In this document: piece by piece, positions 6,151-39,159 of the stretch
Layout of the letters: each line of letters starts with the position of its first letter
Numbering within the stretch: the stretch's first letter is position 1
Source: Squalus acanthias
Lineage: Eukaryota
Reading direction: 5' to 3'
Assembly: GCA_030390025.1 (NCBI GenBank)
Contig: JASTWF010000034.1
Coordinates: 2,356,001-2,420,000, forward strand
Length of the DNA: 64,000 bases
Made by a program: the position numbers and the translations under genes
Notes under the pieces: model-generated
What the model was told of the DNA's origin: nothing
Seen by the model: only the letters and a program-made list of their open reading frames with translations
Databases searched by the model: none

Positions 6151-9023
6151 AATGTTAGGGTCTGTGAGGGCGAATCTCCTAGACCCAGCGGGCTGCAGCA
6201 ATGCCATGTGGGTACGGTAAGCAGGTGCGCGAGGTCTGCTGCACAGCACTTGGATGAGGAACTCGATATCGCGGCCATGAATACCCAAGCCTTGAGCATG
6301 AACACTGAGCTGATGGGTGCAATGGCAAGTGTGCTTGACAGCATGGATACAATGGCTAGGAGCGTGGAGGAGTCCGCCGCTAGCACAGCTTTCATCTGTG
6401 TGCAAGCCCTTGTACCCATCCTTGCCTCATTGCAGAGGATGGTTGAATTGCAGGGAGACCATGGTGAACCAGAGCCGTGTGTAATGCGTGAGGTGGCATG
6501 ATCCATTGCAGCACAGGCCGACGCAACGCAATGGCTTAGTGCTGCAATTCAGTCATTGGATGGTGCCATCCAGTCTCAGACTGCTGTCATGCCGTCTCAG
6601 ATTGATGTCACGCAAGCATGAGTACTGCCATCCTCGCAGGGTCACCCACAGTCCCTCAGGGATCTCACGGTGCCGCAGCAGGCCAGCAATCTGTGCTCGA
6701 GCTGATTGCTCCAGATGCTGAGGTTCTGCCCCGGAGGAGTGGCAGCATTTCAGTCGAACAGAAAGGTGCTGTCCCATCTCAAGATGACAGCATTCCTGTC
6801 CCACCAACGCCACTACCCCATTGCACTTGGCATGGTCTGCAACACAGCCAGCCCAGACTGCTGCCGCCCATACAGAGTTGGTGCAGTCAGCAGCCCGGCT
6901 CTCTAGGCCCAGAGCTGATCGAGGGCGTCCTTCAAGGCAATCTCTAGATCAAGCATTCAGCAGCCTTCCGCCAGCCTTGCTGCAGCCAGTGGGGCCACAT
7001 TACAGAGGAGCAGTAGGGTGGGAAGGGGGGATATGCGGAGGGGGTGGAGGTCACCCTCGAAGTCCCAAAAGTAGAATCTGTAAATAAATCGGGGGAATGT
7101 TTGTGGGAAAGTTTGAGGTTGTTATCATATTTGTTGACTGTTTTGCCATTTGGCTCCATGTTGTGAGAACGAGTTTTGTTCGTTCATGAATTGTTGGGTT
7201 TGTTTCTAATTGTTTGTCCTGATCAAATGGCACAGATTTTGTAATATAAATATTTTTTTAAATTCTAACTTTAAATCTTTCCTGATTTGAATCATTGCAG
7301 CTTAGGCCGGCAACAGGGTGTGCGGGATGCTTTCAGTGATGTGCTTCTTCATCCCAGAAGCTATCTTCTCAGTAAGGGATTAGAATCGGTGTCTTATCAG
7401 CCATTCACGGTCGGCCCTTGCAATGGCAACATTGTGCATCTCCCTCCCACCGTGGTGCTGCTGATCCTCCTCTTCATCCTCCTCCTCATCCTCTTCCTCA
7501 GGTGGTGCACCAATCCCTGGTGGCAATAGCTGGGCCCTCATGATTGCAATGTTATGAAGCATGTAGCACACAACAATCAAGAGGGAGACTTGCTCGGGAT
7601 AGTACTGCAGGGCTCCCTCTGAGTGGTCCAGACACCGGAACCGTTGTTTCAAGTCACCGGTCGTGTGCTCTGAGGTTCCTGGTGGCGCTATGGCTCTCAT
7701 TGTATTGCTGCTCGGCAGGGGTGTTGGGTTTATGGAGCGGTGTCATCAGCCAGATTCAGAGTGGATAACCCTTGTCCCCGAGGAGCCATCCATTAGGTTG
7801 ATGCGGTGGTTGGAAGAGGTCTGCGACACCGGTCTGCCGCAGGATAAAAGTATCGTAGCTGCTGCCAGGATAGCGGGCATTGACGGCAAGGATGAGCTGA
7901 CTGTGGTCACACACCCACTGGACATTCAGAGCGTGGCTGCCCTTGTAGTTTCGGAACACCTCTGCATTGTCATGAGTTGCCCCACAATGCCACATGCGTG
8001 CTGTCAATGGCGCCCTGAACCATGGGGAAGCCCACTATTCTCGCACAGCCACATGCGCGTTTGTGCTGTTTGTCCCGGGTCATGGGGAGAGATGTACTGG
8101 CGTCTCCTCTTATACAAAGCCTTTGTCACCTCCTGGATGCAACAATGAACAGCGAACTGGGAGATATTCACTATGTCCCCAGTAGAAGTCTGAAAGGGAC
8201 CGCTGACTTAGAAATTCAGAGCCACTTTCACCCTCACTGCCACCGACAGTGACGTCCTGGTCCTGAACTGAGGCTGCAGATCTGGTCGCAGGAGGTGGCA
8301 GAGCACAGTGACCACCTCCTTGCTGATGCACAGTCTTTGGAAACACTGCTCCTCAGAAACATGGATATAGGAGGAGAATTGCTCCCGGAATACCCTGGGA
8401 GGATAAGGTCTCCTGTGCAGAGGCCTGTTGGCCCTCCTCCCTCTGGCAATGTTTGCAACTGTCTCTCTGCGCCTCTACAGTCTCTGAAGGTGAAGCTGGA
8501 CAATGCAGAAGCCCCGAGTTAGTGCAGCCCCCATCGAAGCTTCCATATATCGTTAGAAGGAAGTTGAAATAAAAATGAACCTCCAAAGTTGTTCTCAGGA
8601 CCCAAAACTCTTTCGGTCAGCGTCGAATCTCTCCAGACGTCTGTCTCCCTCTCAACCTGTGTGTACCAAAAATTTTGCAGACAAGAAAAGGCAGGAAGCG
8701 GCCGCCTTTAAATAGCGCTCCCCCAGCTCCTTCCTGACTTGAAAACGTTCCCCTCTACCTGTCGTTCCTAGCGGCAGGCGGAAAGGCAGGGGACGTGACT
8801 CAATATCCGGTCCGGGGTGCTACCGGGGCGTTCCACTCTCGTATGATGTCACGATCTGCGGGCGCAAGAGACTGTGGCGGCATTCTTTAGCGCCGCTGCA
8901 AAACGACTGGTCTATTTCGCGAGTGGCGCTAAAATAGCCGTGCTCGGGCGCTAAGTATCGAGCACACCGTTAGCGCCCCTGAAAGCGCTAAGGGGAGGCG
9001 CAAACTAACCGGCTTTTTCCCCG
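6150..9023. mobile_element. Decayed, left-truncated PIF/Harbinger DNA transposon
   Basis: HARBI1-like transposase remnants on the minus strand; convergent + strand coding-like remnants at 6208-7030 where the Myb/SANT partner gene usually lies (not recognised by motif); GC-rich subterminal region ending ~9023. Confidence 0.75.
7380..8490 (-). pseudogene. Harbinger DDE transposase (HARBI1-like), frameshifted
   Basis: Motifs FRNYKGSHALNVQWVCD, NARYPGSSYD, WLLGDKGYPL, LKQRFRCLD, VVCYMLHNIA and an acidic tail, split over ORFs 7756-8007 and 7380-7700; 5' boundary approximate. Confidence 0.85.
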
Positions 9024-9249
9024 CATGTTTAACTGTGTTTCTCTCTTTCTCGTTCCCCATCCCATCCGCGCTGCTGTCAGCTATTGATTCTGATCGTGAT
9101 ATTGTGTAACCAAGATTCAAATGTTCTATATTCAACTCAAGTAAATTTATTGGAAGTGACTCTTGATTTAACGAATTTCAGTCTGCTACCGACACTGAAC
9201 ATTAGTATCAGGTCAGAAGAATGTTGTCTTGGTTTAGGAGACTTTTCAC

Positions 9250-9392
9250 CTAATGGCGAAAGGCCATCGACCTGAAACGTTAACTCTATTTCTCTCTCTC
9301 TCCACAGATGCTGCCTGACCCGCTGAGTATTTCCACCATTTTCTGTTTTCATTTCAGATTTCCAGTATCCGCAGTATTTTTCTTTTGTTTTC
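9250..9392 (+). mobile_element. Penelope-like terminal repeat fragment
   Basis: GAAAGGCCATCGACCTGAAACGTTAACTC...CCACAGATGCTGCCTGACC; same motif near 19300 (+) and 22170, 31360, 39050 (-). Confidence 0.65.
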
Positions 9393-10700
9393 ACCTAATG
9401 CTCGGTATGGTTACTTACAGAGTCACAGGAACAAATCCTGGCAGATCACATCCACATCATTAAATGTCTGAAATATCCGCTAATCATTCAGTTCCAGTCA
9501 GTGTCTCCTTTCCCACCCTCTCCAGTTCTGCATTATTGGCACTGCTTCTGGTGGTTAAAGTAGGATGACAAGGATAATTTACATTGTCACAAAACGTTCA
9601 TTCAGCCAGATTTCAATACATTTCTTTCTGATCATTGTACTGAATTTACAATTGGATCCCATGCCCGTCTGTCACAGTACAGTGGATCTGTAAGTGAGAC
9701 CCAGAGTGATTCTCTATTGCCTCCTGCTGTACTTCAGGATAAACAATCCCCGCTGATTGTAACTGAAGTACTGAGGATAAGAAAATCCTTTGATATCTTC
9801 TCGTCTAATATTCTCTGCAGAAGTTGGAAACAACAGGTGAAAAAGTACAAGGATAAATCTCTTCCATTTGAGTTCAGATACTTTTCAACAGCATTTGGTG
9901 GCACTTTGCCTGTGGGCTAAGTCGTCTGATTCCGATGCTAATAAATGCATTTAGTGGGACATTACCTGGTCAATCATCACTATTTACTTTAATTCAGAGT
10001 CCATTATTTGCAATGTTCCTTGCAAATCTTCCTTTCAATGAGTTAGAATTTGTGTATTTCAACAAAAATGCAGTAAACTCAATCTCCAAAACATATCTGA
10101 TAGCCCAGTTATCTTTATAACTGCAGTGCACTTGTATTTATTATCTTAGCATTGTCATATTACATCCGTACTTTCATATACAATTGCCTGTAATTATTGC
10201 ATGCCAAGGTTGCAGTTTCTGTATTTTGCTGTTGCATTCATTTTCAGTTCTAAATAGAATGGATATTCTGACTTGGAGCAGGCATCCAAGCCGGATTTCC
10301 CCCTCCCTAACACAGGGGCACAGAAGCGAACTGCACCGCTCCAAATGCTGACTGATCCCGGGACACGAAGGCTTCCTGAGAGGGTCTGGTCCTTTGTGTC
10401 CCTGGTACCTCGGGCGGTGCTTTTGTCTGCTGGGCTAAATGTAGATCGATCATTTAATCTCTCCTTGATCAAACATCTGCTACTTTCATGTTGTATTTAT
10501 TCCCATTTCATTTATTGATTCCACAATGTATTCCCGATTATTCTTGCAATACGCCCTGTATTCAGCTCCACAGGTAAAAGGATTAGATAATATCATCAAT
10601 GTCGGTAATGAGTTGCAGATTTCACCCCGAATTCCCTCAAACTGCTGCTTTTGCTCCCAGCCTGATGAATAATTTCCCTGTTTATTTCCCTTCCACACAG

Positions 10701-11602
10701 TTAACTTAGTGACGATAGGGATCCTGTCGCGGGGAAAGTGCGGTCTCTCCAAATGTGTCACTCGCTACCTGGTGGCAATGGCAGCGGCGGATCTACTGGT
10801 CATTATCCTCGACCTGATATTGAGGCACATTCCGATTGTTTATGGGGAACAGTTTGATTTCTTGCGGTCGATCCCCGTGTGTAATATCCACGCCGTCCTG
10901 CTGTTCGCAGCCACAGACTGTTCTGTCTGGTTCACCGTCACTTTCACCTTTGATCGATTTGTGGCCATTTGTTGCCAGAAGCTGAAAACTAAATATTGCA
11001 CCGAGAAAATGGCGGCTGTGGTTCTGGGAACAGTGACTGTGCTGAGCGGTTTAAAGAACATCATCTGGTATTTTATGTTCACAGGTCAGTATGGGCTTGG
11101 GAACATCCCCTGGTTTTGTGATGTCACAGACGATGTTCGTTATTCACGGGTCTGGGGAATAATTGAGCTCCTTCATTATATTCTCACCCCGTGTGTCCCA
11201 TTTGTTGTGATTCTGCTGCTCAATGCTATCACCGTCAGACACATTTTAGTGGCCAGCAGAGCCCGCAGGAGACTCCGGGGACCCAGCAGTGGGGAGAGTC
11301 CCAGAGACCCAGAGATGGAGAGCCGCAGGAAATCCATCATTTTACTGCTTGTTATCTCCGGCAATTTCATCCTGTTATGGGCCGTGTTTATGGTGTATTC
11401 TACATGGGGCCGGATGTGGTGGTTGGGGTATGATTCTGTACTTTTACCTGGTTATGTAATGAAACTGGGATTTGGGCTGCAGCTGCTGAGTTGCTGCACA
11501 AACACTGGGATTTACGCCGTGACCCAGACTAAGTTCAGAGAGCAGTTGAAGAATGTGGGGAAATATCCCTTTACTCTGATTGTAAAATTCATTAAAGAAT
11601 AA
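10701..11602 (+). CDS. Class A GPCR, GPR139/GPR142-like (probable G-protein coupled receptor 139-like); main 3' coding exon
   Basis: Uninterrupted frame covering end of TM1 to TM7: NLVTIGIL, MAAADLLV (TM2), CNIH and FTFDRFVAIC (TM3), TPCVPF (TM5), SGNFILLW (TM6), SCCTNTGIY (TM7); stop at 11600-11602; pyrimidine tract and acceptor TTTCCCTTCCACACAG ending 10700 (phase 1). The GTG start in the ORF track is probably not the true start. Confidence 0.92.
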
Positions 11603-11667
11603 TAAGAGGCGGAGAATTTGCAGACTGAGAGTTGGGAGTTCACAAGGCCTCGTTTGGTGGCGTGCCG

Positions 11668-12735
11668 GACAAAGATGGCAGCTCTGGGGCTCCGCACAAA
11701 GATGGCGGCTCTGGGGCTCCGCACAAAGATGGCGGCACCGGCGCCCAGCACAAAGATGGCGGCTCCTGGAGCACCGCACAACAATGGCGGCTCTGGGGCT
11801 CCGCACAAAGATGGCGGCTCTGGGGCCCCCGACAAAAATGGCGGCTCCGCGGCCCCGCACAACAATGGCGGCCTCTCCGGGGCTCCACATAAAAATGGCG
11901 GCTGTGGTTACTGCACAAAAATGGCGGATCCGCGGCCCCGCACAAAGTTGGCGGCTCCGGGGCCCCGCACAAAGATGGCGCCTCTGGTGCTCAGCACAAA
12001 GATGGTGGCTCCGGGGCACAGCACAAAAATGGCGGCTCCGGGGCCCAGCACAAAGATGGCGCCTCTGGGGCTCAGCACAAAGATGGCGGCTCCGGGGCCC
12101 CGCATAAAGATGGCGGCTCTGGTTACTGAACAAAATTGGCGGCTCTGGGGCTCCGCACAAATATGGCGGCTCTGGGGCCCAGCACAAAGATGGGGGCTCC
12201 GGGGCCCAGCACAACGATGGTGGCTCTGGGGCTCAGCACAAAGATGGCGGCTCCGGGGCACATCACAAAAATGGCGGCTCCGGGGCCCCGCACAAAGATG
12301 GCGGCTCCAGGGCCCCGCACAACAATGGCGGCTCTGGGGCCCCGCACAAAAATGGCGGCTCCGGGGCCCGCACAAAGATGGCAGCACTCGCGCCCAGCAG
12401 AAAGATGGCGGCACTGAAGCCCCGCGAAATGATGGTGGCTTTCGCCCATCCCCGCGCCCATCAGAAAGATGGTGGCACTAGTGCACAGCACAAAAATGGC
12501 GGCTCCTTCGCCACACTGAAAGATGCCGACTCTGGAGCCCCGCACAAAGATGGCGGCTCTGGGGCCCGCACAAAGATGGAGGCTCTGTGGCCCCGCACAA
12601 AGATGGCGGCTCTGGGGACCCGCACAAACATGATGGCTCTGGGGCCATGCACAAAGATGGAGGCTCTGGGGCCCTGCACAAGGATGGCGGCTCTGGGGAC
12701 CCGCACAAAGATGGCGGCTCTGGGGCTCCGCACAA
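11668..12735. repeat. 27-bp GC/CpG-rich minisatellite (~39-40 units) with YY1-consensus motif
   Basis: Unit CAAAGATGGCGGCTCTGGGGCTCCGCA and variants; 9-aa periodicity in overlapping ORFs. Confidence 0.95.
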
Positions 12736-12919
12736 GAATTGTGGGTCTGGCGCCCCGCACTAGGATTGCGGCAGTCACTCGCGGTCTTTCCATGGTGGTG
12801 GGAGCAGTTGGAGTCCCGGTTACTGTGAGAGCGGGCGGCGAGGCGGAGCAGCCTGGCCCGGCCCACAGGACCCCGAGCAGCACAGCCCGGGGAGGAGATG
12901 GCCCGGCACCAGGACTTTA

Positions 12920-13281
12920 TTAAGAACATAAGAACATAAGAAATAGGAGCAGGAGTAGGCCAATCGGCCCCTCGAGCCTGCTCCGCCATTCAATAAGATC
13001 ATGGCTGATCTGATCCTAACCGCCAATCTACTATCTATCACAGAACCATCTCCTGCATCTAACAGAATTGCACACACGAAATAGGAGCAGAATCAGGCTA
13101 CACAGTCCCTGGGCCCGCTCCACTACCCACAGGGCCATGACCGATCCGAACCTAGACTCATGTCCAAATTCCTGCCCGCTCCCCGTAACCCTTAATGCCC
13201 TTTACTTCCAGGAAACTGTCTATTTCTGTTTTAAATTTAATTAATGTTGTAGCTTCTACAGCTTTTTGTGGCAGCATATTC
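12920..13281 (-). mobile_element. 5'-truncated CR1 LINE 3' end
   Basis: AAGAACAT tail repeats; near identity to 2262-2622. Confidence 0.9.
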
Positions 13282-13424
13282 GTCATTATAAATCTTTAAA
13301 ATCATTGCACCACTTTACAGATCTTTTATAACCCTTTATAAATCATTATGACTATTAATAAAACATTATGACGCTTTTTTAATCATTATGACACTTAATA
13401 AATCCTTTTTATCTCTAATTCTTG

Positions 13425-14430
13425 GGATGTGGGATTTCTGCCAGACCAGGTAAGGACAGCAGATTTCCTTCCCGAAAGGCCAGTAGTGAACCAGATGGAT
13501 TTTTACGACAATCCGGTACTTTCATGGTCATCATTATTGACAGAAGCATTTCATTCCAGATTTGTTTAATTAATTGAATTTAAATTCCCCCAGCTTTTAG
13601 GGATTTGAATTAATGGGCCAAAAATTGATCCCGCTGCGCGAGAGTACGCAGTGCGTACTCTCGCGTATTCTCTCTCCAATTGCCGGTTTTCTGCATGCAC
13701 TGCGCATGCGCTGAAAACCGGCACTTGGTCTTTGGAAAAGGGGGCAGTTCCTCGGTGCACCGCGTGCGCGCTACAGGCTGCGCGCACGCTGTGCACTTAG
13801 TGCTTTGGACGCGCAGGTAAGGACGGTCGATTTTAGAAACGAAAAAAGGAGTAAGACACACTTTTAACAAGGTAAGTAGTGAATTAAGTATTATTTTGAA
13901 TTTTTTTTAACAGGTATATCTTTTTTAGAGACTTTAAAGACAGGTAAGTTTATTTTTATAACTTTTTAAAAGATTTTAAATTTTTTCAAAAATTTAATTT
14001 TTTATTTAAAATGGCTAATTTATTTAACTATACTTATTTTATTAATGTGATGGTTTTTTTTAAAATTTAATTGAGGTTTAGCTGTTATTTTGGGGGTGTG
14101 TAAGATTCATAGCTTTCACAGCACGTCTGTGAAACTTTTGAATGGAAGATGGTGTGCTGCCATTGGCTCTAACTGAGTCACGTGATCCCACAGCTCGCAC
14201 GAATTCACTACGCCGGTGGGATACGCAAGCACTGCCCAGCTGATGTCTAGAACATCAAGTTCATGCGAGCTGGATCTGAAAAAGCCAACGCGGAGTGAGA
14301 GATCGCGCCTGCTCCTTACCCCCGCGGGAACAGAGCTAAATCAATTTCTGGGCCAATGTCTCTGGATCATTTGTCCAGTCATCTGGTTTAACTAGTCCAG
14401 CAACATAACCACTATGCTACAGTACCCTTC
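13425..14430 (-). mobile_element. tRNA-derived SINE split by MITE copy 2
   Basis: SINE-like body (AGATTTCCTTCCC...GTGAACCAGATGG) to the left and tRNA-like head remnants (GGATTTGAA, ACTAGTCCAG, ACCACTATGCTAC) flanking the MITE. Confidence 0.55.
13615..14354 (-). mobile_element. MITE copy 2 (more diverged)
   Basis: Reverse complement of 178-919; AAT TSD at 13612-13614 and 14355-14357. Confidence 0.92.
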
Positions 14431-14439
14431 AAATATATC

Positions 14440-14600
14440 GCCGGTCTTTCATCGTCACTGGGTCAAAAGCTTGAAAATCCTTCAGTAACAGTATTGTGGG
14501 AGCAACTTCACCACACGGACTGCAGCGGCTCAAGATGAAGGCCCACCATTTTCTCATGGGTAACTAGGGATGGGCAAGTGATACCGGCATTGACAGCGTC
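14440..14600 (+). mobile_element. Old LINE/SINE 3' tail fragment
   Basis: TTCATCGTCACTGGGTCAAAA...CACCACACGGACTGCAGCGG...TAGGGATGGGCAA, recognised from memory as a common shark retroposon tail. Confidence 0.45.
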
Positions 14601-22282: not shown

Positions 22283-25200
22283 GTGCTGTACCTGCCCTGG
22301 GGGTATTTGGTGGGATTGGGTAGCGGGAGCTTTACTCGTGCTGTACTTGCCTTGGAAGAATTTGATGGCACAGTGCCGAAGGAGATTTACCCTATTCCTA
22401 ACAGGTGCTGCACCTGCTGTGGAAATGTTTGATGAGGCAGTGTAGAAGTAGCTTTAACCTGTATCTAACCCATGCTGTACCTGCTCTTGGAGTATTTGAT
22501 GGGGCATGGTAGAAGTAGATTTAACCTGTATCTAACCCATGCTGTACCTGCTCTTGGAGTATTTGATGGGGCAGAGAGCTTTAATCTTTATATAACCCGT
22601 GCTGTTATTGCCCTGGGAATGTTTGATGGGACAGTGCAGAGAGCTTTAATCTTTATGTAACCAGTGCTGTTATTGCCCTGGGAATGTTTGATTGGGACAG
22701 TGCAGAGAGCTTTAATCTTTATATAACCCGTTCTGTTATTGCCCGGGGAATGTTTGATGGGAAAGTGCAGAGAGCTTTAATCTTTATATAAACCGTGCTG
22801 TTATTGCCCGGGGAATGTTTGATGGGACAGTGCAGAGCGCTTTAATCTTTATATAACCCGTGCTGTTATTGCCTTGGGAATGTTTGATGGGACAGTGCAG
22901 AGAGCTTTAATCTTGACATAACCCGTGCTGTTATTGCCCGGGAATGTTTGATGGGACAGTGCAGAGAGCTTTAATCTTTATATAACCCGTGCTGTTATTG
23001 CCCTGGGAATGTTTGATGGGACTGTGCAGACAGCTTTAATCTTATTACAGCCCGTGCTGTTATTGCCCTGGGAATGTTAGATGGGACAGTGCAGTGAGCT
23101 TTAATCTTTATATAACCCGTGCTGTTATTGCCCGGGGAATGTTTGATGGGAAAGTGCAGAGAGCTTTAATCTTTATATAACCCGTGCTGTTATTGCCCTG
23201 GGAATGTTTGATTGGACAGTGCAGAGAGCTTTAATCTTTATATAACCCGTGCTGTTATTGCCCTGGGAATGTTTGAAGGGACAGTGCAGAGAGCTTTAAT
23301 CTTTATATAACCCGAGCTGTTATTGCCCTGGGAATGTTTGATGGGACAGTGCAGAGAGCTTTAATCTTTATATAACCCGTGCTGTTATTGCCCGGGGAAT
23401 GTTTGATGAGACAGTGCAGAGAGCTTTAATCTTTATATAACCCGTGCTGTTACTGCCCTGGGAATGTTTGATGGGACAGTGCAGAGAGCTTTAATCTTTC
23501 TATAAGCCGTGCTGTTATTGCCCGGAGAATGTTTGATGGGACAGTGCAGAGAGCTTTAATCTTTATATAACCCGTGCTGTTATTGCCCTGGGAATGTTTG
23601 ATGGGACAGTGCAGAGAGCTTTAATCTTTATATAACCCGTGCTGTTATTGCCCTGGGAATGTTTGATGCATCTCCGCATAATGTTTGATGGGACAGTGCA
23701 GAGAGCTTTAATCTTTATATAACCCGTGCTGTTATTGCCCTGGGAATGTTTGATTGGGACAGTGCAGAGAGCTTTAATCTTTATATAACCCGTGCTGTTA
23801 TTGCCCGGGGAATGTTTGATGGGACAGTGCAGAGAGCTTTAATCTTTATATAACCCGTGCTGTTATTGCCCTGGGAATGTTTGATGGGACAGTGCAGAGA
23901 GCTTTAATCTTTATATAACCCGTGCTGTTATTGCCCTGGGAATGTTTGATGGGACAGTGCAGAGAGCTTTAATCTTTATATAACCCGTGCTGTTATTGCC
24001 CTGGGAATGTTTGATGGGACAGTGCAGAGAGCTTTAATCTTTATATAACCCGTGCTGTTATTGCCCTGGGAATGTTTGATGGGACAGTGCAGAGAGCTTT
24101 AATCTTTATATAACCCGTGCTGTTATTGCCCTGGGAATGTTTGATGGGACAGTGCAGAGAGCTTTAATCTTTATATAACCCGTGCTGTTATTGCCCTGGG
24201 AATGTTTGATGGGACAGTGCAGAGAGCTTTAATCTTTATATAACCCGTGCTGTTATTGCCCTGGGAATGTTTGATGGGACAGTGCAGAGAGCTTTAATCT
24301 TTATATAACCCGTGCTGTTATTGCCCTGGGAATGTTTGATGGGACAGTGCAGAGAGCTTTAATCTTTATATAACCCGTGCTGTTATTGCCCTGGGAATGT
24401 TTGATGGGACAGTGCAGAGAGCTTTAATCTTTATATAACCCGTGCTGTTATTGCCCTGGGAATGTTTGATGGGACAGTGCAGAGAGCTTTAATCTTTATA
24501 TAACCCGTGCTGTTATTGCCCTGGGAATGTTTGATGGGACAGTGCAGAGAGCTTTAATCTTTATATAACCCGTGCTGTTATTGCCCTGGGAATGTTTGAT
24601 GGGACAGTGCAGAGAGCTTTAATCTTTATATAACCCGTGCTGTTATTGCCCTGGGAATGTTTGATGGGACAGTGCAGAGAGCTTTAATCTTTATATAACC
24701 CGTGCTGTTATTGCCCTGGGAATGTTTGATGGGACAGTGCAGAGAGCTTTAATCTTTATATAACCCGTGCTGTTATTGCCCTGGGAATGTTTGATGGGAC
24801 AGTGCAGAGAGCTTTAATCTTTATATAACCCGTGCTGTTATTGCCCTGGGAATGTTTGATGGGACAGTGCAGAGAGCTTTAATCTTTATATAACCCGTGC
24901 TGTTATTGCCCTGGGAATGTTTGATGGGACAGTGCAGAGAGCTTTAATCTTTATATAACCCGTGCTGTTATTGCCCTGGGAATGTTTGATGGGACAGTGC
25001 AGAGAGCTTTAATCTTTATATAACCCGTGCTGTTATTGCCCTGGGAATGTTTGATGGGACAGTGCAGAGAGCTTTAATCTTTATATAACCCGTGCTGTTA
25101 TTGCCCTGGGAATGTTTGATGGGACAGTGCAGAGAGCTTTAATCTTTATATAACCCGTGCTGTTATTGCCCTGGGAATGTTTGATGGGACAGTGCAGAGA

Positions 25201-28200
25201 GCTTTAATCTTTATATAACCCGTGCTGTTATTGCCCTGGGAATGTTTGATGGGACAGTGCAGAGAGCTTTAATCTTTATATAACCCGTGCTGTTATTGCC
25301 CTGGGAATGTTTGATGGGACAGTGCAGAGAGCTTTAATCTTTATATAACCCGTGCTGTTATTGCCCTGGGAATGTTTGATGGGACAGTGCAGAGAGCTTT
25401 AATCTTTATATAACCCGTGCTGTTATTGCCCTGGGAATGTTTGATGGGACAGTGCAGAGAGCTTTAATCTTTATATAACCCGTGCTGTTATTGCCCTGGG
25501 AATGTTTGATGGGACAGTGCAGAGAGCTTTAATCTTTATATAACCCGTGCTGTTATTGCCCTGGGAGCATTTGATGGGACAGTGCAGAGAGCTTTAATCT
25601 TTATATAACCCGTGCTGTTATTGCCCTGGGAATGTTTGATGGGACAGTGCAGAGAGCTTTAATCTTTATATAACCCGTGCTGTTATTGCCCGGGAATGTT
25701 TGATGGGACAGTGCAGAGAGCTTTAATCTTTATATAACCCGTGCTGTTATTGCCCTGGGAATGTTTGATGGGACAGTGCAGAGAGCTTTAATCTTAAATA
25801 ACCCGTGCTGTTATTGCCCTGGGAATGTTTGATGGGACAGTGCAGAGAGCTTTAATCTTTATATAACCCGTGCTGTTATTGCCCTGGGAATGTTTGATGG
25901 GACAGTGCAGAGAGCTTTAATCTTTATATAACCCGTGCTGTTATTGCCCTGGGAATGTTTGATGGGACAGTGCAGAGAGCTTTAATCTTTATATAACCCG
26001 TGCTGTTATTGCCCTGGGAATGTTTGATGGGACAGTGCAGAGAGCTTTAATCTTTATATAACCCGTGCTGTTATTGCCCTGGGAATGTTTGATGGGACAG
26101 TGCAGAGAGCTTTAATCTTTATATAACCCGTGCTGTTATTGCCCTGGGAATGTTTGATGGGACAGTGCAGAGAGCTTTAATCTTTATATAACCCGTGCTG
26201 TTATTGCCCTGGGAATGTTTGATGGGACAGTGCAGAGAGCTTTAATCTTTATATAACCCGTGCTGTTATTGCCCTGGGAATGTTTGATGGGACAGTGCAG
26301 AGAGCTTTAATCTTTATATAACCCGTGCTGTTATTGCCCTGGGAATGTTTGATGGGACAGTGCAGAGAGCTTTAATCTTTATATAACCCGTGCTGTTATT
26401 GCCCGGGAATGTTTGATGGGACAGTGCAGAGAGCTTTAATCTTTATATAACCCGTGCTGTTATTGCCCTGGGAATGTTTGATGGGACAGTGCAGAGAGCT
26501 TTAATCTTTATATAACCCGTGCTGTTATTGCCCGGGAATGTTTGATGGGACAGTGCAGAGAGCTTTAATCTTTATATAACCCGTGCTGTTATTGCCCGGG
26601 GAATGTTTGATGGGACAGTGCAGAGAGCTTTAATCTTTATATAACCCGTGCTGTTATTGCCCTGGGAATGTTTGATGGGACAGTGCAGAGAGCTTTAATC
26701 TTTATATAACCCGTGCTGTTATTGCCCGGGAATGTTTGATGGGACAGTGCAGAGAGCTTTAATCTTTATATAACCCGTGCTGTTATTGCCCTGGGAATGT
26801 TTGATGGGACAGTGCAGAGAGCTTTAATCTTTATATAACCCGTGCTGTTATTGCCCTGGGAATGTTTGATGGGACAGTGCAGAGAGCTTTAATCTTTATA
26901 TAACCCGTGCTGTTATTGCCCTGGGAATGTTTGATGGGACAGTGCAGAGAGCTTTAATCTTTATATAACCCGTGCTGTTATTGCCCGGGGAATGTTTGAT
27001 GGGACAGTGCAGAGAGCTTTAATCTTTATATAACCCGTGCTGTTATTGCCCGGGGAATGTTTGATGGGACAGTGCAGAGAGCTTTAATCTTTATATAACC
27101 CGTGCTGTTATTGCCCGGGGAATGTTTGATGGGACAGTGCAGAGAGCTTTAATCTTTATATAACCCGTGCTGTTATTGCCCTGGGAATGTTTGATGGGAC
27201 AGTGCAGAGAGCTTTAATCTTTATATAACCCGTGCTGTTATTGCCCGGGGAATGTTTGATGGGACAGTGCAGAGAGCTTTAATCTTTATATAACCCGTGT
27301 TGTTATTGCCCGGGGAATGTTTGATGGGACAGTGCAGAGAGCTTTAATCTTTATATAACCCGTGCTGTTATTGCCCTGGGAATGTTTGATGGGACAGTGC
27401 AGAGATCTTTAATCTTTATATAACCCGTGCTGTTACTGCCCTGGGAATGTTTGATGGGACAGTGCAGAGAGCTTTAATCTTTATATAACCCGTGCTGTTA
27501 CTGCCCTGGGAATGTTTGATGCATCTCCGCATAATGTTTGATGGGACAGTGCAGAGAGCTTTAATCTTTATATAACCCGTGCTGTTATTGCCCTGGGAAT
27601 GTTTGATGGGACAGTGCAGAGAGCTTTAATCTTTATATAACCCGTGCTGTTACTGCCCTGGGAATGTTTGATGCATCTCCGCATAATGTTTGATGGGACA
27701 GTGCAGAGAGCTTTAATCTTTATATAACCCGTGCTGTTATTGCCCTGGGAATGTTTGATGGGACAGTGCAGAGAGCTTTAATCTTTATATAACCCGTGCT
27801 GTTATTGCCCGGGGAATGTTTGATGGGACAGTGCAGAGAGCTTTAATCTTTATATAACCCGTGCTGTTATTGCCCTGGGAATGTTTGATGGGACAGTGCA
27901 GAGAGCTTTAATCTTTATATAACCCGTGCTGTTATTGCCCGGGGAATGTTTGATGGGACAGTGCAGAGAGCTTTAATCTTTATATAACCCGTGCTGTTAT
28001 TGCCCTGGGAATGTTTGATGGGACAGTGCAGAGAGCTTTAATCTTTATATAACCCGTGCTGTTATTGCCCTGGGAATGTTTGATGGGACAGTGCAGAGAG
28101 CTTTAATCTTTATATAACCCGTGCTGTTATTGCCCGGGGAATGTTTGATGGGACAGTGCAGAGAGCTTTAATCTTTATATAACCCGTGCTGTTATTGCCC

Positions 28201-31200
28201 TGGGAATGTTTGATGGGACAGTGCAGAGAGCTTTAATCTTTATATAACCCGTGCTGTTATTGCCCTGGGAATGTTTGATGGGACAGTGCAGAGAGCTTTA
28301 ATCTTTATATAACCCGTGCTGTTATTGCCCTGGGAATGTTTGATTGGGACAGTGCAGAGAGCTTTAATCTTTATATAACCCGTGCTGTTATTGCCCTGGG
28401 AATGTTTGATGGGACAGTGCAGAGAGCTTTAATCTTTATATAACCCGTGCTGTTATTGCCCTGGGAATGTTTGATGGGACAGTGCAGAGAGCTTTAATCT
28501 TTATATAACCCGTGCTGTTATTGCCCTGGGAATGTTTGATGGGACAGTGCAGAGAGCTTTAATCTTTATATAACCCGTGCTGTTATTGCCCGGGGAATGT
28601 TTGATGGGACAGTGCAGAGAGCTTTAATCTTTATATAACCCGTGCTGTTATTGCCCTGGGAATGTTTGATGGGACAGTGCAGAGAGCTTTAATCTTTATA
28701 TAACCCGTGCTGTTATTGCCCTGGGAATGTTTGATTGGGACAGTGCAGAGAGCTTTAATCTTTATATAACCCGTGCTGTTATTGCCCTGGGAATGTTTGA
28801 TGGGACAGTGCAGAGAGCTTTAATCTTTATATAACCCGTGCTGTTATTGACCGTGAATGTTTGATGGGACAGTGCAGAGAGCTTTAATCTTTATATAACC
28901 CGTGCTGTTATTGCCCTGGGAATGTTTGATGGGACAGTGCAGAGAGCTTTAATCTTTATATAACCCGTGCTGTTATTGCCCTGGGAATGTTTGATGGGAC
29001 AGTGCAGAGAGCTTTAATCTTTATATAACCCGTGCTGTTATTGCCCTGGGAATGTTTGATGGGACAGTGCAGAGAGCTTTAATCTTTATATAACCCGTGC
29101 TGTTATTGCCCTGGGAATGTTTGATGGGACAGTGCAGAGAGCTTTAATCTTTATATAACCCGTGCTGTTATTGCCCTGGGAATGTTTGATGGGACAGTGC
29201 AGAGAGCTTTAATCTTTATATAACCCGTGCTGTTATTGCCCTGGGAATGTTTGATGGGACAGTGCAGAGAGCTTTAATCTTTATATAACCCGTGCTGTTA
29301 TTGCCCTGGGAATGTTTGATGGGACAGTGCAGAGAGCTTTAATCTTTATATAACCCGTGCTGTTATTGCCCGGGGAATGTTTGATGGGACAGTGCAGAGA
29401 GCTTTAATCTTTATATAACCCGTGCTGTTATTGCCCTGGGAATGTTTGATGGGACAGTGCAGAGAGCTTTAATCTTTATATAACCCGTGCTGTTATTGCC
29501 CGGGGAATGTTTGATGGGACAGTGCAGAGAGCTTTAATCTTTATATAACCCGTGCTGTTATTGCCCTGGGAATGTTTGATGGGACAGTGCAGAGAGCTTT
29601 AATCTTTATATAACCCGTGCTGTTATTGCCCGGGGAATGTTTGATGGGACAGTGCAGAGAGCTTTAATCTTTATATAACCCGTGCTGTTATTGCCCTGGG
29701 AATGTTTGATGGGACAGTGCAGAGAGCTTTAATCTTTATATAACCCGTGCTGTTATTGCCCGGGGAATGTTTGATGGGACAGTGCAGAGAGCTTTAATCT
29801 TTATATAACCCGTGCTGTTATTGCCCGGGGAATGTTTGATGAGACAGTGCAGAGAGCTTTAATCTTTATATAACCCGTGCTGTTAGTGCCCTGGGAATGT
29901 TTGATGGGACAGTGCAGAGAGCTTTAATCTTTCTATAAGCCGTGCTGTTATTGCCCGGAGAATGTTTGATGGGACAGTGCAGAGAGCTTTAATCTTTATA
30001 TAACCCGTGCTGTTATTGCCCTGGGAATGTTTGATGGGACAGTGCAGAGAGCTTTAATCTTTATATAACCCGTGCTGTTATTGCCCTGGGAATGTTTGAT
30101 GCATCTCCGCATAATGTTTGATGGGACAGTGCAGAGAGCTTTAATCTTTATATAACCCGTGCTGTTATTGCCCTGGGAATGTTTGATGGGACAGTGCAGA
30201 GAGCTTTAATCTTTATATAACCCGTGCTGTTATTGCCCTGGGAATGTTTGATGGGACAGTGCAGAGAGCTTTAATCTTTATATAACCCGTGCTGTTATTG
30301 CCCTGGGAATGTTTGATGGGACAGTGCAGAGAGCTTTAATCTTTATATAACCCGTGCTGTTATTGCCCTGGGAATGTTTGATGGGACAGTGCAGAGAGCT
30401 TTAATCTTTATATAACCCGTGCTGTTATTGCCCTGGGAATGTTTGATGGGACAGTGCAGAGAGCTTTAATCTTGATATAACCCGTGCTGTTATTGCCCTG
30501 GGAGCATTTGATTGGGACAGTGCAGAGAGCTTTAATCTTTATATAACCCGTGCTGTTATTGCCCTGGGAATGTTTGATGGGACAGTGCAGAGAGCTTTAA
30601 TCTTTATATAACCCGTGCTGTTATTGCCCTGGGAATGTTTGATGGGACAGTGCAGAGAGCTTTAATCTTTATATAACCCGTACTGTTATTGCCCTGGGAA
30701 TGTTTGATGGGACAGTGCAGAGAGCTTTAATCTTTATATAACCCGTGCTGTTATTGCACTGGGAGCATTTGATTCGGACAGTGCAGAGAGCTTTAATCTT
30801 TATATAACCCGTGCTGTTATTGCCCTGGAAATGTTTGATGGGACAGTGCAAAGAACTTTATTCTTTATATAACCCGTGCTGTTATTGCCCTGGGAGCATT
30901 TGATTGGGACAGTGCAGAGAGCTTTCATCTTTATATAACCCGTGCTGTTATTGCCCTGGGAATGTTAGATGGGACAGTGCAGAGAGCTTTAATCTTTACA
31001 TAACCCGTAATGTTATTGCCCGGGGAATGTTTGATGGGACAGTGCAGAGAGCTTTAATCTTTATATAACCCGTGCTGTTATTGCCCTGGGAATGTTTGAT
31101 GGGACAGTGCAAAGAGCTTTAATCTTTATATAACCCGTGCTGTTATTGCCCGGGCAATGTTTGATGGCACAGTCCAGACGGAGCTTTACTTTTTATCCCG

Positions 31201-32536
31201 GATGTTTGGGTATTGGGCCAACCGCCCGCTCCAGCTCACTGTGCGGCCTGTGAATTTAAGTGCGGGGAATCTGACAGATCGCCACGCGGCCAAGAACCAT
31301 ACAGGAAACATTGCTCAGCAGGTCAGGCAGCATCTGTGGAGAGAGAAACAGAGTCAATGTTTCAGGTCGATGACCTTTCATCAGAACTGTTAAATGTTAC
31401 AGATCTAACAGATTTTAAACTTGTATAGAGGCAGGGAAAGGGGGGATGGGAGGAAAGAACAAAAGGGAAGGTCTGTGCTGTACCTGCCCTGGGGGTATTT
31501 GGTGGGATTGGGTAGCGGGAGCTTTACTCGTGCTGTACTTGCCTTGGGAGAATTTGATGGCACAGTGCCGAAGGAGATTTACCCTATTCCTGACAGGTGC
31601 TGCACCTGCTGTGGAAATGTTTGATGAGGCAGTGTAGAAGTAGCTTTAACCTGTATCTAACCCATGCTGTACCTGCTCTTGGAGTATTTGATGGGGCATG
31701 GTAGAAGTAGATTTAAACTGTATCTAACCCATGCTGTACCTGCTCTTGGAGTATTTGATGGGGCAGAGAGCTTTAATCTTTATATAACCCGTGCTGTTAT
31801 TGCCCTGGGAATGTTTGATGGGACAGTGCAGAGAGCTTTAATCTTTATGTAACCAGTGCTGTTATTGCCCTGGGAATGTTTGATTGGGACAGTGCAGAGA
31901 GCTTTAATCTTTATATAACCCGTTCTGTTATTGCCCGGGGAATGTTTGATGGGACAGTGCAGAGAGCTTTAATCTTTATATAAACCGTGCTGTTATTGCC
32001 CGGGGAATGTTTGATGGGACTGTGCAGACAGCTTTAATCTTATTACAGCCCGTGCTGTTATTGCCCTGGGAATGTTTGATGGGACAGTGCAGAGAGCTTT
32101 AATCTTTATATAACCCGTGCTGTTATGGCCCGGGGAATGTTTGATGGGAAAGTGCAGAGAGCTTTAATCTTTATATAACCCGTGCGGTTATTGCCCTGGG
32201 GATGTTTGATTGGAGAGTGCAGAGAGCTTTAATCTTTATATAACCCGTGCTGTTATTGCCCTGGGAATGTTTGATGGGACAGTGCAGAGAGCTTTAATCT
32301 TTATATAACCCGTGCTGTTATTGCCCGGGGAATGTTTGATGGGACAGTGCAGAGAGCTTTAATCTTTATATAACCCGTGCTGTTATTGCCCTGGGAATGT
32401 TTGATGGGACAGTGCAGAGAGCTTTAATCTTTATATAACCCGTGCTGTTATTGCCCGGGAATGTTTGATGGGACAGTGCAGAGAGCTTTAATCTTTATAT
32501 AACCCGTGCTGTTATTGCCCTGGGAATGTTTGATGG

Positions 32537-32703
32537 ACAAACTTGAGAGGTCGCACAACACCAGGTTATAGTCCAACAGTTTTATTTGAAATCACAATCT
32601 TTCGGAGCTATCGCTCCTTCCTCAGGTGAAGTAAATTGGATACAGAATCGCCAGAGCATATATAGATGGAAAACAAAGCATGTGTACTTTACAATTGCAG
32701 ACC
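32537..32703 (-). mobile_element. Short Penelope-like insertion with minimal hammerhead motif
   Basis: Flanked by duplicated AATGTTTGATGG (32525-32536, 32704-32715); minus strand has CTGAGGA-AGGAGC-GATA-GCTCC-GAAA followed by AATAAA. Confidence 0.8.
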
Positions 32704-35700
32704 AATGTTTGATGGGACAGTGCAGAGAGCTTTAATCTTTATATAACCCGTGCTGTTATTGCCCTGGGAATGTTTGATGGGACAGTGCAGAGAGCTTTAA
32801 TCTTTATATAACCCGTGCTGTTATTGCCCTGGGAATGTTTGATGGGACAGTGCAGAGAGCTTTAATCTTTATATAACCCGTGCTGTTATTGCCCGGGGAA
32901 TGTTTGATGGGACAGTGCAGAGAGCTTTAATCTTTATATAACCCGTGCTGTTATTGCCCGGGGAATGTTTGATGGGACAGTGCAGAGAGCTTTAATCTTT
33001 ATATAACCCGTGCTGTTATTGCCCTGGGAATGTTTGATGGGACAGTGCAGAGAGCTTTAATCTTTATATAACCCGTGCTGTTATTGCCCTGGGAATGTTT
33101 GATGGGACAGTGCAGAGAGCTTTAATCTTTATATAACCCGTGCTGTTATTGCCCTGGGAATGTTTGATGGGACAGTGCAGAGAGCTTTAATCTTTATATA
33201 ACCCGTGCTGTTATTGCCCTGGGAATGTTTGATGGGACAGTGCAGAGAGCTTTAATCTTTATATAACCCGTGCTGTTATTGCCCTGGGAATGTTTGATGG
33301 GACAGTGCAGAGAGCTTTAATCTTTATATAACCCGTGCTGTTATTGCCCTGGGAATGTTTGATGGGACAGTGCAGAGAGCTTTAATCTTTATATAACCCG
33401 TGCTGTTATTGCCCTGGGAATGTTTGATGGGACAGTGCAGAGAGCTTTAATCTTTATATAACCCGTGCTGTTATTGCCCTGGGAGCATTTGATTGGGACA
33501 GTGCAGAGAGCTTTAATCTTTATATAACCCGTGCTGTTATTGCCCTGGGAATGTTTGATGGGACAGTGCAGAGAGCTTTAATCTTTATATAACCCGTGCT
33601 GTTATTGCCCTGGGAGCATTTGATGGGACAGTGCAGAGAGCTTTAATCTTTATATAACCCGTGCTGTTATTGCCCTGGGAATGTTTGATGGGACAGTGCA
33701 GAGAGCTTTAATCTTTATATAACCCGTGCTGTTATTGCCCTGGGAGATTTGATGGGACAGTGCAGAGAGCTTTAATCTTTATATAACCCGTGCTGTTATT
33801 GCCCTGGGAATGTTTGATGGGACAGTGCAGAGAGCTTTAATCTTTATATAACCCGTGCTGTTATTGCCCTGGGAATGTTTGATGGGACAGTGCAGAGAGC
33901 TTTAATCTTTATATAACCCGTGCTGTTATTGCCCGGGGAATGTTTGATGGGACAGTGCAGAGAGCTTTAATCTTTATATAACCCGTGCTGTTATTGCCCT
34001 GGGAATGTTTGATGGGACAGTGCAGAGAGCTTTAATCTTTATATAACCCGTGCTGTTATTGCCCGGGGAATGTTTGATGGGACAGTGCAGAGAGCTTTAA
34101 TCTTTATATAACCCGTGCTGTTATTGCCCGGGGAATGTTTGATGGGACAGTGCAGAGAGCTTTAATCTTTATATAACCCGTGCTGTTATTGCCCGGGGAA
34201 TGTTTGATGGGACAGTGCAGAGAGCTTTAATCTTTATATAACCCGTGCTGTTATTGCCCGGGAATGTTTGATGGGACAGTGCAGAGAGCTTTAATCTTTA
34301 TATAACCCGTGCTGTTATTGCCCTGGGAATGTTTGATGGGACAGTGCAGAGAGCTTTAATCTTTATATAACCCGTGCTGTTATTGCCCTGGGAATGTTTG
34401 ATGGGACAGTGCAGAGAGCTTTAATCTTTATATAACCCGTGCTGTTATTGCCCGGGGAATGTTTGATGGGACAGTGCAGAGAGCTTTAATCTTTATATAA
34501 CCCGTGCTGTTATTGCCCGGGGAATGTTTGATGGGACAGTGCAGAGAGCTTTAATCTTTATATAACCCGTGCTGTTATTGCCCTGGGAATGTTTGATGGG
34601 ACAGTGCAGAGAGCTTTAATCTTTATATAACCCGTGCTGTTATTGCCCTGGGAATGTTTGATGGGACAGTGCAGAGAGCTTTAATCTTTATATAACCCGT
34701 GCTGTTATTGCCCTGGGAATGTTTGATGGGACAGTGCAGAGAGCTTTAATCTTTATATAACCCGTGCTGTTATTGCCCTGGGAATGTTTGATGGGACAGT
34801 GCAGAGAGCTTTAATCTTTATATAACCCGTGCTGTTATTGCCCTGGGAATGTTTGATGGGACAGTGCAGAGAGCTTTAATCTTTATATAACCCGTGCTGT
34901 TATTGCCCTGGGAATGTTTGATGGGACAGTGCAGAGAGCTTTAATCTTTATATAACCCGTGCTGTTATTGCCCGGGGAATGTTTGATGGGACAGTGCAGA
35001 GAGCTTTAATCTTTATATAACCCGTGCTGTTATTGCCCGGGGAATGTTTGATGGGACAGTGCAGAGAGCTTTAATCTTTATATAACCCGTGCTGTTATTG
35101 CCCGGGGAATGTTTGATGGGACAGTGCAGAGAGCTTTAATCTTTATATAACCCGTGCTGTTATTGCCCTGGGAATGTTTGATGGGACAGTGCAGAGAGCT
35201 TTAATCTTTATATAACCCGTGCTGTTATTGCCCTGGGAATGTTTGATGGGACAGTGCAGAGAGCTTTAATCTTTATATAACCCGTGCTGTTATTGCCCTG
35301 GGAATGTTTGATGGGACAGTGCAGAGAGCTTTAATCTTTATATAACCCGTGCTGTTATTGCCCTGGGAATGTTTGATGGGACAGTGCAGAGAGCTTTAAT
35401 CTTTATATAACCCGTGCTGTTATTGCCCTGGGAATGTTTGATGGGACAGTGCAGAGAGCTTTAATCTTTATATAACCCGTGCTGTTATTGCCCTGGGAAT
35501 GTTTGATGGGACAGTGCAGAGAGCTTTAATCTTTATATAACCCGTGCTGTTATTGCCCGGGGAATGTTTGATGGGACAGTGCAGAGAGCTTTAATCTTTA
35601 TATAACCCGTGCTGTTATTGCCCGGGGAATGTTTGATGGGACAGTGCAGAGAGCTTTAATCTTTATATAACCCGTGCTGTTATTGCCCGGGGAATGTTTG

Positions 35701-38296
35701 ATGGGACAGTGCAGAGAGCTTTAATCTTTATATAACCGTGCTGTTATTGCCCGGGGAATGTTTGATGGGACAGTGCAGAGAGCTTTAATCTTTATATAAC
35801 CCGTGCTGTTATTGCCCTGGGAATGTTTGATGGGACAGTGCAGAGAGCTTTAATCTTTATATAACCCGTGCTGTTATTGCCCTGGGAATGTTTGATGGGA
35901 CAGTGCAGAGAGCTTTAATCTTTATATAACCCGTGCTGTTATTGCCCTGGGAATGTTTGATGGGACAGTGCAGAGAGCTTTAATCTTTATATAACCCGTG
36001 CTGTTATTGCCCTGGGAATGTTTGATGGGACAGTGCAGAGAGCTTTAATCTTTATATAACCCGTGCTGTTATTGCCCTGGAATGTTTGATGGGACAGTGC
36101 AGAGAGCTTTAATCTTTATATAACCCGTGCTGTTATTGCCCAGGGAATGTTTGATGGGACAGTGCAGAGAGCTTTAATCTTTATATAACCCGTGCTGTTA
36201 TTGCCCGGGGAATGTTCGATGGGACAGTGCAGAGAGCTTTAATCTTTATATAACCCGTGCTGTTATTGCCCTGGGAATGTTTGATGGGACAGTGCAGAGA
36301 GCTTTAATCTTAAAAAACCCGTGCTGTTATTGCCCGGGGAATGTTTGTTGGGACAGTGCAGAGAGCTTTAATCTTTATATAACCCGTGCTGTTATTGCCC
36401 GGGGAATGTTTGATGGGACAGTGCAGAGAGCTTTAATCTTTATATAACCCGTGCTGTTATTGCCCGGGGAATGTTTGATGGGACAGTGCAGAGAGCTTTA
36501 ATCTTTATATAACCCGTGCTGTTATTGCCCTGGGAATGTTTGATGGGACAGTGCAGAGAGCTTTAATCTTTATATAACCCGTGCTGTTATTGCCCTGGGA
36601 ATGTTTGATGGGACAGTGCAGAGAGCTTTAATCTTTATATAACCCGTGCTGTTATTGCCCTGGGAATGTTTGATGGGACAGTGCAGAGAGCTTTAATCTT
36701 TATATAACCCGTGCTGTTATTGCCCGGGGAATGTTTGATGGACAGTGCAGAGAGCTTTAATCTTTATACAACCGTGTTGTTATTGCCCGGGGAATGTTTG
36801 ACTGGGACAGTGCAGAGAGCTTTAATCTTTATATAACCCGTGCTGTTATTGCCCGGGGAATGTTTGATGGGACAGTGCAGAGAGCTTTAATCTTTATATA
36901 ACCCGTGCTGTTATTGCCCGGGGAATGTTTGATGGGACAGTGCAGAGAGCTTTAATCTTTATATAACCCGTGCTGTTATTGCCCTGGAAATGTTTGATGG
37001 GACAGTGCAGAGAGCTTTAATCTTTATATAACCCGTGCTGTTATTGCCCGGGAATGTTTGATGGGACAGTGCAGAGAGCTTTAATCTTTATGTAACCCGT
37101 GCTGTTATTGCCCGGGGAATGTTCGATGGGACAGTGCAGAGAGCTTTAATCTTTATATAACCCGTGCTGTTATTGCCCTGGGAATGTTTGATGGGACAGT
37201 GCTGAGAGCTTTAATCTTCATATAACCCGTGCTGTTATTGCCCGGGGAATGTTTGATGGGACAGTGCAGAGAGCTTTAATCTTTATATAACCCGTGCTGT
37301 TATTGCCCGGGGAATGTTTGATGGGACAGTGCAGAGAGCTTTAATCTTTATATAACCCGTGCTGTTATTGCCCGGGGAATGTTTGATGGGACAGTGCAGA
37401 GAGCTTTAATCTTTATATAACCCGTGCTGTTATTGCCCGGGGAATGTTTGATGGGACAGTGCAGAGAGCTTTAATCTTTATATAACCCGTGCTGTTATTG
37501 CCCTGGGAATGTTTGATGGGACAGTGCAGAGAGCTTTAATCTTTATATAACCCGTGCTGTTATTGCCCTGGGAATGTTTGATGGGACAGTGCAGAGAGCT
37601 TTAATCTTTATATAACCCGTGCTGTTATTGCCCGGGGAATGTTTGATGGGACAGTGCAGAGAGCTTTAATCTTTATATAACCCGTGCTGTTATTGCCCGG
37701 GGAATGTTTGATGGGACAGTGCAGAGAGCTTTAATCTTTATATAACCCGTGCTGTTATTGCCCTGGGAATGTTTGATGGGACAGTGCAGAGAGCTTTAAT
37801 CTTTATATAACCCGTGCTGTTATTGCTCTGGGAATGTTTGATGGGACAGTGCAGAGAGCTTTAATCTTTATATAACCCGTGCTGTTATTGCCCTGGGAAT
37901 GTTTGATGGGACAGTGCAGAGAGCTTTAATCTTTATATAACCCGTGCTGTTATTGCCCTGGGAATGTTTGATGGGACAGTGCAGAGAGCTTTAATCTTTA
38001 TATAACCCGTGCTGTTATTGCCCTGGGAATGTTTGATGGGACAGTGCAGAGAGCTTTAATCTTTATATAACCCGTGCTGTTATTGCCCTGGCAATGTTTG
38101 ATGGGACAGTGCAGATGGAGCATTACTTTGCATCCCGGGTGTTTGGGTATTGGGCCCCTTCGCCCGCTCCAGCTCGCTGTGCGGCCTGTGAATTTAAGTG
38201 TGCAGGATCTTACAGATCGCCACGCGGCCCAGAACCTTCCAGGAAACATTTCTCAGCATGTCAGACTGCATCTGTGGAAAGAGAAACAGAGTCAAT

Positions 38297-39039: not shown

Positions 39040-39159
39040 ATTGTTTCAGGTCGATGACCTTTCATCAGAACTGGAAATGTTACAGATGTAACAGATTTTA
39101 AGCATGTATAGAGGCAGGGAAAGTGGGGGATGGGAGGAAAGAACAAAAGGGAAGGTCTG

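Follow-up and report, generated by a model that had tools for sequence, protein, structure and literature searches.

Receptor exon and surrounding features

The window (the whole stretch of DNA that was analysed, 64,000 nucleotides in length) contains one large coding exon of a shark GPR139-like receptor of the rhodopsin family (10701..11602, forward strand), which extends from TM1 to the stop codon and is open for 299 codons. The exon matches Pfam 7tm_1 (E 7e-19) and is preceded by an AG acceptor at 10699-10700. A total of 2594 homologues were found, the best 120 of which are all 'probable GPR139' models from three sharks (56-81% identity). No second receptor exon was found within the window, and neither strand of the window matched an HMM that represents the first-exon ends in 91 of the 120 homologues; with no first exon in the 10.7 kb upstream, the exon must either follow an intron of over 10.7 kb (long and repeat-filled) or be an orphan. 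A stretch ahead of the exon (9741-9845) matches, at 60% over 35 residues and with E 1e-7, the mis-spliced tail of P0120, a receptor model from Pristiophorus, which points to an intron stretch common to different species.

The exon is followed by a spacer of 65 bp (11603..11667, forward strand), the proximal half of which is common to many receptor paralogues, then by an array of 27-bp units, and then by a GC-rich, non-repetitive tail (12785..12919; about 67% GC) with no Rfam match at E 0.1; no Rfam family was matched anywhere in 9000-14500. The GC-rich block is bounded by a young interspersed repeat on the reverse strand (12920..13281), which is 97.5% identical over 360 bp to positions 2263-2622, is present in shorter copies elsewhere in the window, and is presumably a CR1/SINE-type 3' tail.

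Other tandem arrays make up about 42% of the window. One of these, at 41364-42817, consists of about 55 units of 26 bp, with no receptor exon found nearby, and a 16-kb satellite with a 65-bp unit (22339-38115; 98-99% homogeneous) contains several interruptions by one and the same short variant with an 87-bp period. On the reverse strand, a frame open for 978 codons (54239-57175), with ORF1-like frames upstream, reads as what we take to be a CR1-type LINE endonuclease and reverse transcriptase.

Structure of the 27-bp array

Tandem Repeats Finder assigned a 27-bp period with 40.7 copies and 74% matches to positions 11665-12772. Division into units from 11668 yielded 41 head-to-tail units, 39 good and two degenerate. 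The first-pass annotation had described a tandem array just downstream of the receptor, with up to about 40 YY1-consensus sites and a start about 65 bp past the stop codon; the array and its start are confirmed: 65 bases separate the stop codon (11600-11602) from unit 1. Units 1-39 (11668..12730, forward strand) have the consensus CACAAAGATGGCGGCTCTGGGGCCCCG, from which they diverge by 12.8% on average, and carry a YY1-type site in columns 5-13 that is intact in 22 of the 39. The two degenerate end units obtained by the unit division (12731..12784, forward strand, end approximate) have no YY1 site.

Among the 41 aligned units, 40 are distinct from one another, and no higher-order period was found in the array when looked for. 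All seven indels in units 1-39 fall in columns 15-23, in or beside the G/C run, and none within columns 5-13; six units measure 26, 28 or 37 bp. The distinct units, the lack of a higher-order period and the indels at the G/C run fit a drifting minisatellite, and the array shows the features typical of GC-rich minisatellites: a unit length between 10 and 100 bp, head-to-tail order, variation among the units and short indels. No special folding of the DNA was detected for four units (z -0.95).

As 27 is divisible by three, the array might encode a protein repeat of nine residues, either separately or joined to the C-terminus of the receptor. A frame of 268 codons that opens with ATG (11675-12481) lies in the receptor's frame, and the third-position columns of one reading frame vary more than the others (0.185 vs about 0.10). 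However, two stops separate the receptor from this frame, the six units of aberrant length shift it, and it has neither a Pfam match nor a homologue among 8000 candidates. A search of 1.84 billion representatives gave 43 matches (the top 10 looked up, all 43 scanned with Pfam), and the matches listed are unrelated nine-residue repeats; of 162 receptor models from cartilaginous fish, none extends into the repeat. The coding reading was rejected for its stops, its frame shifts, the lack of homologues and the lack of such models, and we consider it extremely improbable.

YY1-type sites in the array

The motif named in the first-pass annotation is indeed a YY1 consensus: the unit fits the published site CGCCATNTT as well as the Peg3 site GGCGCCATCTT, and the sites share a single orientation. 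Its frequency had been overstated, since AA(G/A)ATGGCGGC, which was said to occur in most units, is exact in only 18 of the 41 (12 with G, 6 with A). The site CGCCATNTT is present in 22 of the 41 units, all on the forward strand and none on the reverse strand, AANATGG is found in 29, and the lenient ECMFinder rule (one mismatch allowed outside CCAT) accepts 33. Only one YY1-type site lies elsewhere in the window beyond the array, and this is within the receptor exon. In units 1-39, AANATGGCG is broken in 17; the breaks lie mostly in column 12, with 8 units, and in column 6, with 6 units.

The number of motifs in the array is explained by the copying of one unit. When the unit was shuffled 400,000 times, AANATGGCG appeared in 0.04% of the shuffles and the 11-mer in 0.003% (a post hoc figure), and the rarity of the 11-bp match suggests that the founder may derive from a YY1-bearing promoter or element; the figure is weakened by the many minisatellite families in a genome and the many known motifs that are tested. 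In the available text of PMC1904287, which names no shark, the YY1 zinc fingers are described as nearly invariant across vertebrates and their binding as methylation-sensitive. Given these near-invariant fingers and the fit of the unit to the YY1 site, binding of YY1 to unmethylated units is plausible, and we predict that such units would probably bind it.

The sites could form a selected YY1 module of the receptor subfamily that recruits YY1 when unmethylated and tunes or restricts the expression of the paralogues, be it as an enhancer on the 3' side, as an anchor of loops or as a silencer of the Polycomb type. The 22 same-strand sites, with none on the opposite strand, speak for such a module, and the 17 broken sites of 39 against it; on all the evidence, including that given below, we regard it as unlikely.

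Conservation of the YY1 core

The YY1 core had been described as seeming to vary less than the other columns of the unit. Identity to the consensus is 0.90 over the 11 core columns vs 0.835 elsewhere (column permutation, p 0.078), and for the eight columns specified by CGCCATNTT it is 0.936 vs 0.845 in units 1-39 (raw p 0.037). The direction of the trend was thus as described, but the eight-column contrast lost significance in a parsimony count of changes on the unit tree (p 0.067) and in a permutation within base class (p 0.11). In the four control arrays of the window, A columns were more constant than G columns, and T columns more constant than C columns, in four of four each.

At single columns the pattern is mixed. 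Columns 4, 5, 9 and 10 are invariant in the 39 units, column 7, the free position of the YY1 motif, is the most variable column of the core, and the indels spare columns 5-13; this trend towards YY1 counts against a plain minisatellite. The specified columns 6 and 12 are just 0.85 and 0.79 constant, which places them with the more variable columns. Of all 11-column windows of the unit, the best begins at column 1 and not at the YY1 core. The first unit division had been anchored on columns 1-17; an anchor-free wrap-around alignment gave identical column values. For the four control arrays in the window, the best-window excess was 0.05-0.07 vs 0.08 for the 27-bp array, and in none of the five arrays was the best of all windows significant. 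The direction of the trend is real, but its strength does not suffice to demonstrate selection: the somewhat higher conservation of the critical columns is a weak point in favour of a selected module, against which stands its lack of significance by parsimony or base matching.

CpG content and decay

The array has a GC content of 64% and contains 73-75 CpGs. The first-pass annotation called it CpG-rich, which holds relative to the window (observed/expected ratio 0.66 vs 0.47) but not relative to the adjoining exon (0.64). CpG transitions in the array occur at 1.5 times the non-CpG rate when pooled, and are higher per column (5, 2, 4 and 2 vs a median of 1; p 0.045); a pooled ratio of just 1.5 does not demonstrate strong decay through methylation. 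Local controls gave ratios of 1.5 (three copies of a 750-bp element) and 2.4 (the 26-bp array). The 750-bp element, the three copies of which (175-926, 13612-14365 and 38294-39050) are about 90% identical, has a CpG ratio of 1.14, shows little decay of its CpGs and contains palindromic motifs that resemble TGCGCATGCGC.

Copies of the unit in other contigs and link to the receptors

Across 12 of the 14 runs, the share of the words of 11603-12919 was 0.50-0.71 in organism A (two samples, one of which is possibly the window's own source; X1-X5) and 0.20 or less in the others, with 0.06-0.13 in runs X7, X8, X9 and X11. Four of the 14 runs were aligned to 10603-11803, a region that comprises the exon, the spacer and units 1-5 and ends ahead of units 6-41, the tail and the right junction. 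The 27-bp unit was found in contigs of organisms A, B and E. A fit to two places of the aligned stretch was seen for 508 of 7951 aligned records from organism A (run X2), for 106 of 1628 from organism B (X6) and for 111 of 2058 from organism E (X10). Loose ends yield the unit in each of the three runs, and in X2 those of 38-70 records run on as further units. Several variant units in the contigs are missing from the window's 41 units, as compared by eye. The unit consensus keeps the YY1 site in organisms A and B, whereas the consensus of six loose ends in organism E does not.

In X2, the depths on the first units add up to more than 120,000, whereas each listed joint has 53-227; although the sum cannot be read as a copy number, it requires many more arrays than one 1.1-kb locus. 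The many unit variants in organism A, together with the unit in two other organisms, indicate a repeat family common to related sharks, and related arrays beyond the locus, as known from minisatellites, are represented by hundreds of contigs of organism A and also in organisms B and E. These other arrays could all lie behind receptors, which would count against a plain minisatellite. The unit pattern had no match in metagenome and viral contigs, in which the receptor was likewise confirmed in none of 69 and none of 10 candidate stretches.

The clearest link to the receptors is provided by an X2 contig (depth 27) that differs from the window at nine listed places in 11635-11668. All nine differences put the end of the contig at 11718, and its other end lies at least 83 bases left of 11635; the common end at 11718 implies that the contig passes from the end of the exon to the units without loss of register. 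It appears to be a diverged paralogue with a spacer of equal length, followed by the first two units; its final 50 bases would be units, judging from an alignment that extends across mismatches. The apparent presence of the same exon-spacer-array junction in a diverged paralogue argues for some link of the array to the receptor family, and the junction appears to be present at two loci at least, the second seen in one contig. As to the question raised in the first-pass annotation, whether other GPR139-like paralogues have the same 3' array, one contig points to a second such paralogue. Contigs of X6 cover the distal spacer with mostly window-like letters, and no bridge with 31 bases on both sides was found among them. 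The X2 contig in register and the coverage of the distal spacer in X6 also speak for a selected module.

Under an 80% cut-off and a record filter, the depth in X2 is about 6,650 at the stop codon but just 137 at position 11635 of the spacer, and no more than 27 remains at 11651-11659; the corresponding values in X6 are 359, 40 and 24, and in X10 the depth drops from 401 to 0. As contigs break at branch points, and given the cut-off and the filter, this fall does not show paralogues that lack the array. The ratios of unit depth to exon-peak depth (1.3, 3.8 and 8.5 for X2, X6 and X10, respectively) are not copy numbers.

Some paralogues also differ from the window's copy in their polyadenylation signal. 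In four paralogue contigs of X10 an AATAAA is positioned right after the stop codon, and a G-to-A change at 11608, which is part of this AATAAA, is found in nearly all of the X2 depth at the site. The window's copy has no AATAAA after its stop codon (11601-11609), and the next one on the forward strand is at 13357, so that its transcript could run through the array. In paralogues with an AATAAA after the stop codon, we infer that an array at the equivalent place would fall beyond the end of the mRNA.

Four Heterodontus receptor models (P0037, P0049, P0088 and P0107) have read-through tails such as YHGD, PVTMET and PWRQ. Back-translation of these tails would give GC-rich sequence that resembles GC-box and RFX X-box motifs, which hints that the 3' flanks of the GPR139-like family in other sharks may carry other motif-rich repeats.

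No literature on the 27-bp repeat or on a GPR139-like expansion in sharks was found in searches of a collection with few subscription journals. Simple tandem repeats are described as abundant on small shark chromosomes in the main text of PMC10620051; neither this main text nor that of bioRxiv 10.1101/2025.06.08.657570, the gene groups of which are given in its supplement, uses 'GPR' as a name for the GPR139-like family.

Origin of the array

The array and the GC-rich tail could stem from a mobile element whose promoter-like end they form, or from a CpG island of which a fragment was captured; the YY1 sites in the tandem monomers would then belong to that element, which would have been inserted after an ancestral copy of the receptor. 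The GC-rich block (11603-12919) has sharp edges against its AT-rich flanks, the unit exists in many variants in three organisms, and repeats are known to carry YY1 motifs in fish (bioRxiv 10.1101/2022.09.29.510218, as far as its available text describes). On the other hand, the tail and the array have no second copy in the window, there is no ORF with real homologues, and neither a target-site duplication nor a terminal repeat was noticed by eye; such an insertion is rather improbable.

The unit could also have been born from the receptor's own exon by local duplication and then been amplified. Unit 9 (11892-11909) shares an exact 18-mer with the exon (11006-11023), whereas no other match of the array to the remainder of the window reaches 12 bases, and none of 3000 simulated exons gave an 18-mer. 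The consensus unit, however, fits the exon at just 15 of 20 positions, which is no better than at background sites. The ATG in the exon is a minority allele, with T in 69, M in 7 and an unmatched pattern in 44 of the 120 homologues, and position 11010 is C in nearly all aligned contigs. An origin in the exon is therefore very improbable, and later local exchange or chance fits the shared 18-mer better.

The origin we favour, and hold to be probable, is a neutral 27-bp shark minisatellite with a YY1 motif in its founder, co-inherited with some of the receptor duplicates. The minisatellite, which apparently has not been described so far, carries the YY1 motif in about half of its units. The founder unit of this GC-rich family would have happened to hold a YY1 consensus, and slippage and unequal exchange would have enlarged the array and would keep its units similar, so that one motif could become about 40 same-strand copies without selection on each. 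The array would have come to lie behind an ancestor of this receptor lineage, would have been in place by the time of at least one duplication of the gene and would then have been carried along, a timing suggested by the one paralogue contig. Judging from mammalian data, an unmethylated array would probably bind YY1 and could affect the local chromatin; the analysis gave no sign that YY1 binding would be the reason for the persistence of the array.

Comparison with known YY1 clusters

Like the Peg3 cluster (and those of Nespas and Xist), the array combines several YY1 sites of the same orientation, tandem repeats and CpG-rich DNA. As far as the available texts go, the Peg3 cluster has about 10 YY1 sites over 2.5 kb, in first-intron repeats at a germline DMR (PMC4196374), clusters of its type have 4-10 same-orientation sites (PMC5526879), and their imperfect sites arise through CpG change (PMC4196374, PMC5526879). 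A genome-wide search for such YY1 clusters covered the 5 kb around start sites (PMC2665242, in its available part). Peg3 lies beside a promoter and its sites are kept across mammals while the surroundings diverge; the shark array has about 40 units in 1.1 kb, lies 3' of a last exon, belongs to a repeat family and is known from sequence alone.

By the ECMFinder rule for Peg3-type clusters, i.e. three or more same-orientation CGCCATNTT sites per 500 bp, the array has the motif and the orientation. It has not the position (promoter or first intron, within 5 kb of a start site), although an unannotated start may exist nearby, and with this failure it is not classed as a Peg3-type element. For a selected module, these comparisons cut both ways. 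Mutation of the Peg3 sites changed transcript levels, which provides a mammalian precedent, but left methylation and imprinting undisturbed (PMC5526879); an earlier knockdown study had tied YY1 to Peg3 methylation (PMC2761279; both in their available parts). Peg3-type clusters consist of few sites in otherwise diverged sequence and not of 40 near-identical units (PMC5526879, PMC2665242, in the parts available). The location of the array also counts against a module, since it follows the last exon and any first exon is over 10.7 kb away.

YY1-binding tandem repeats, i.e. D4Z4, DXZ4 and Xist repeat F, are a further precedent for a module; the available text of PMC3465993 describes D4Z4 and DXZ4 as YY1-bound, with a chromatin state set by copy number or allele. 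Both are GC-rich tandem arrays like that of the shark, but their units are kilobases long (3.3 kb for D4Z4, according to the available part of PMC4278900) in contrast to 27 bp, and their binding has been shown, whereas that of the shark array is predicted. The X chromosome of Poecilia picta provides a fish example of repeat expansion that multiplies YY1 motifs; its elements are dispersed and linked to sex-specific hypomethylation (bioRxiv 10.1101/2022.09.29.510218, in its available part), whereas the shark array is a tandem minisatellite.

Implications

A methylation-sensitive, looping or monoallelic control element, as had been proposed for the array, is not supported: base matching left the core contrast at p 0.11, 17 of 39 sites are broken, the unit belongs to a repeat family, and the position is 3' of the gene. 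To our knowledge, parental imprinting is not known in sharks, which also counts against a selected module. In its most far-reaching form, the proposal would make the dense 3' YY1 array of a GPR139-like subfamily a methylation-gated loop anchor or silencer that helps to choose the paralogue or the allele to be expressed, i.e. a Peg3-like YY1 cluster of minisatellite origin in animals in which imprinting is not known; this we consider distinctly doubtful.

As a neutral minisatellite, the array is of little importance, being one of many tandem arrays in the window. It may nevertheless serve as a natural test of the co-option of dense, repeat-borne YY1 motifs, because paralogues with and without the array could be compared within one genome. 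If co-option were true, it would bear on the regulation of a very large family of shark receptors, and on why imprinting control regions hold multiple YY1 sites.
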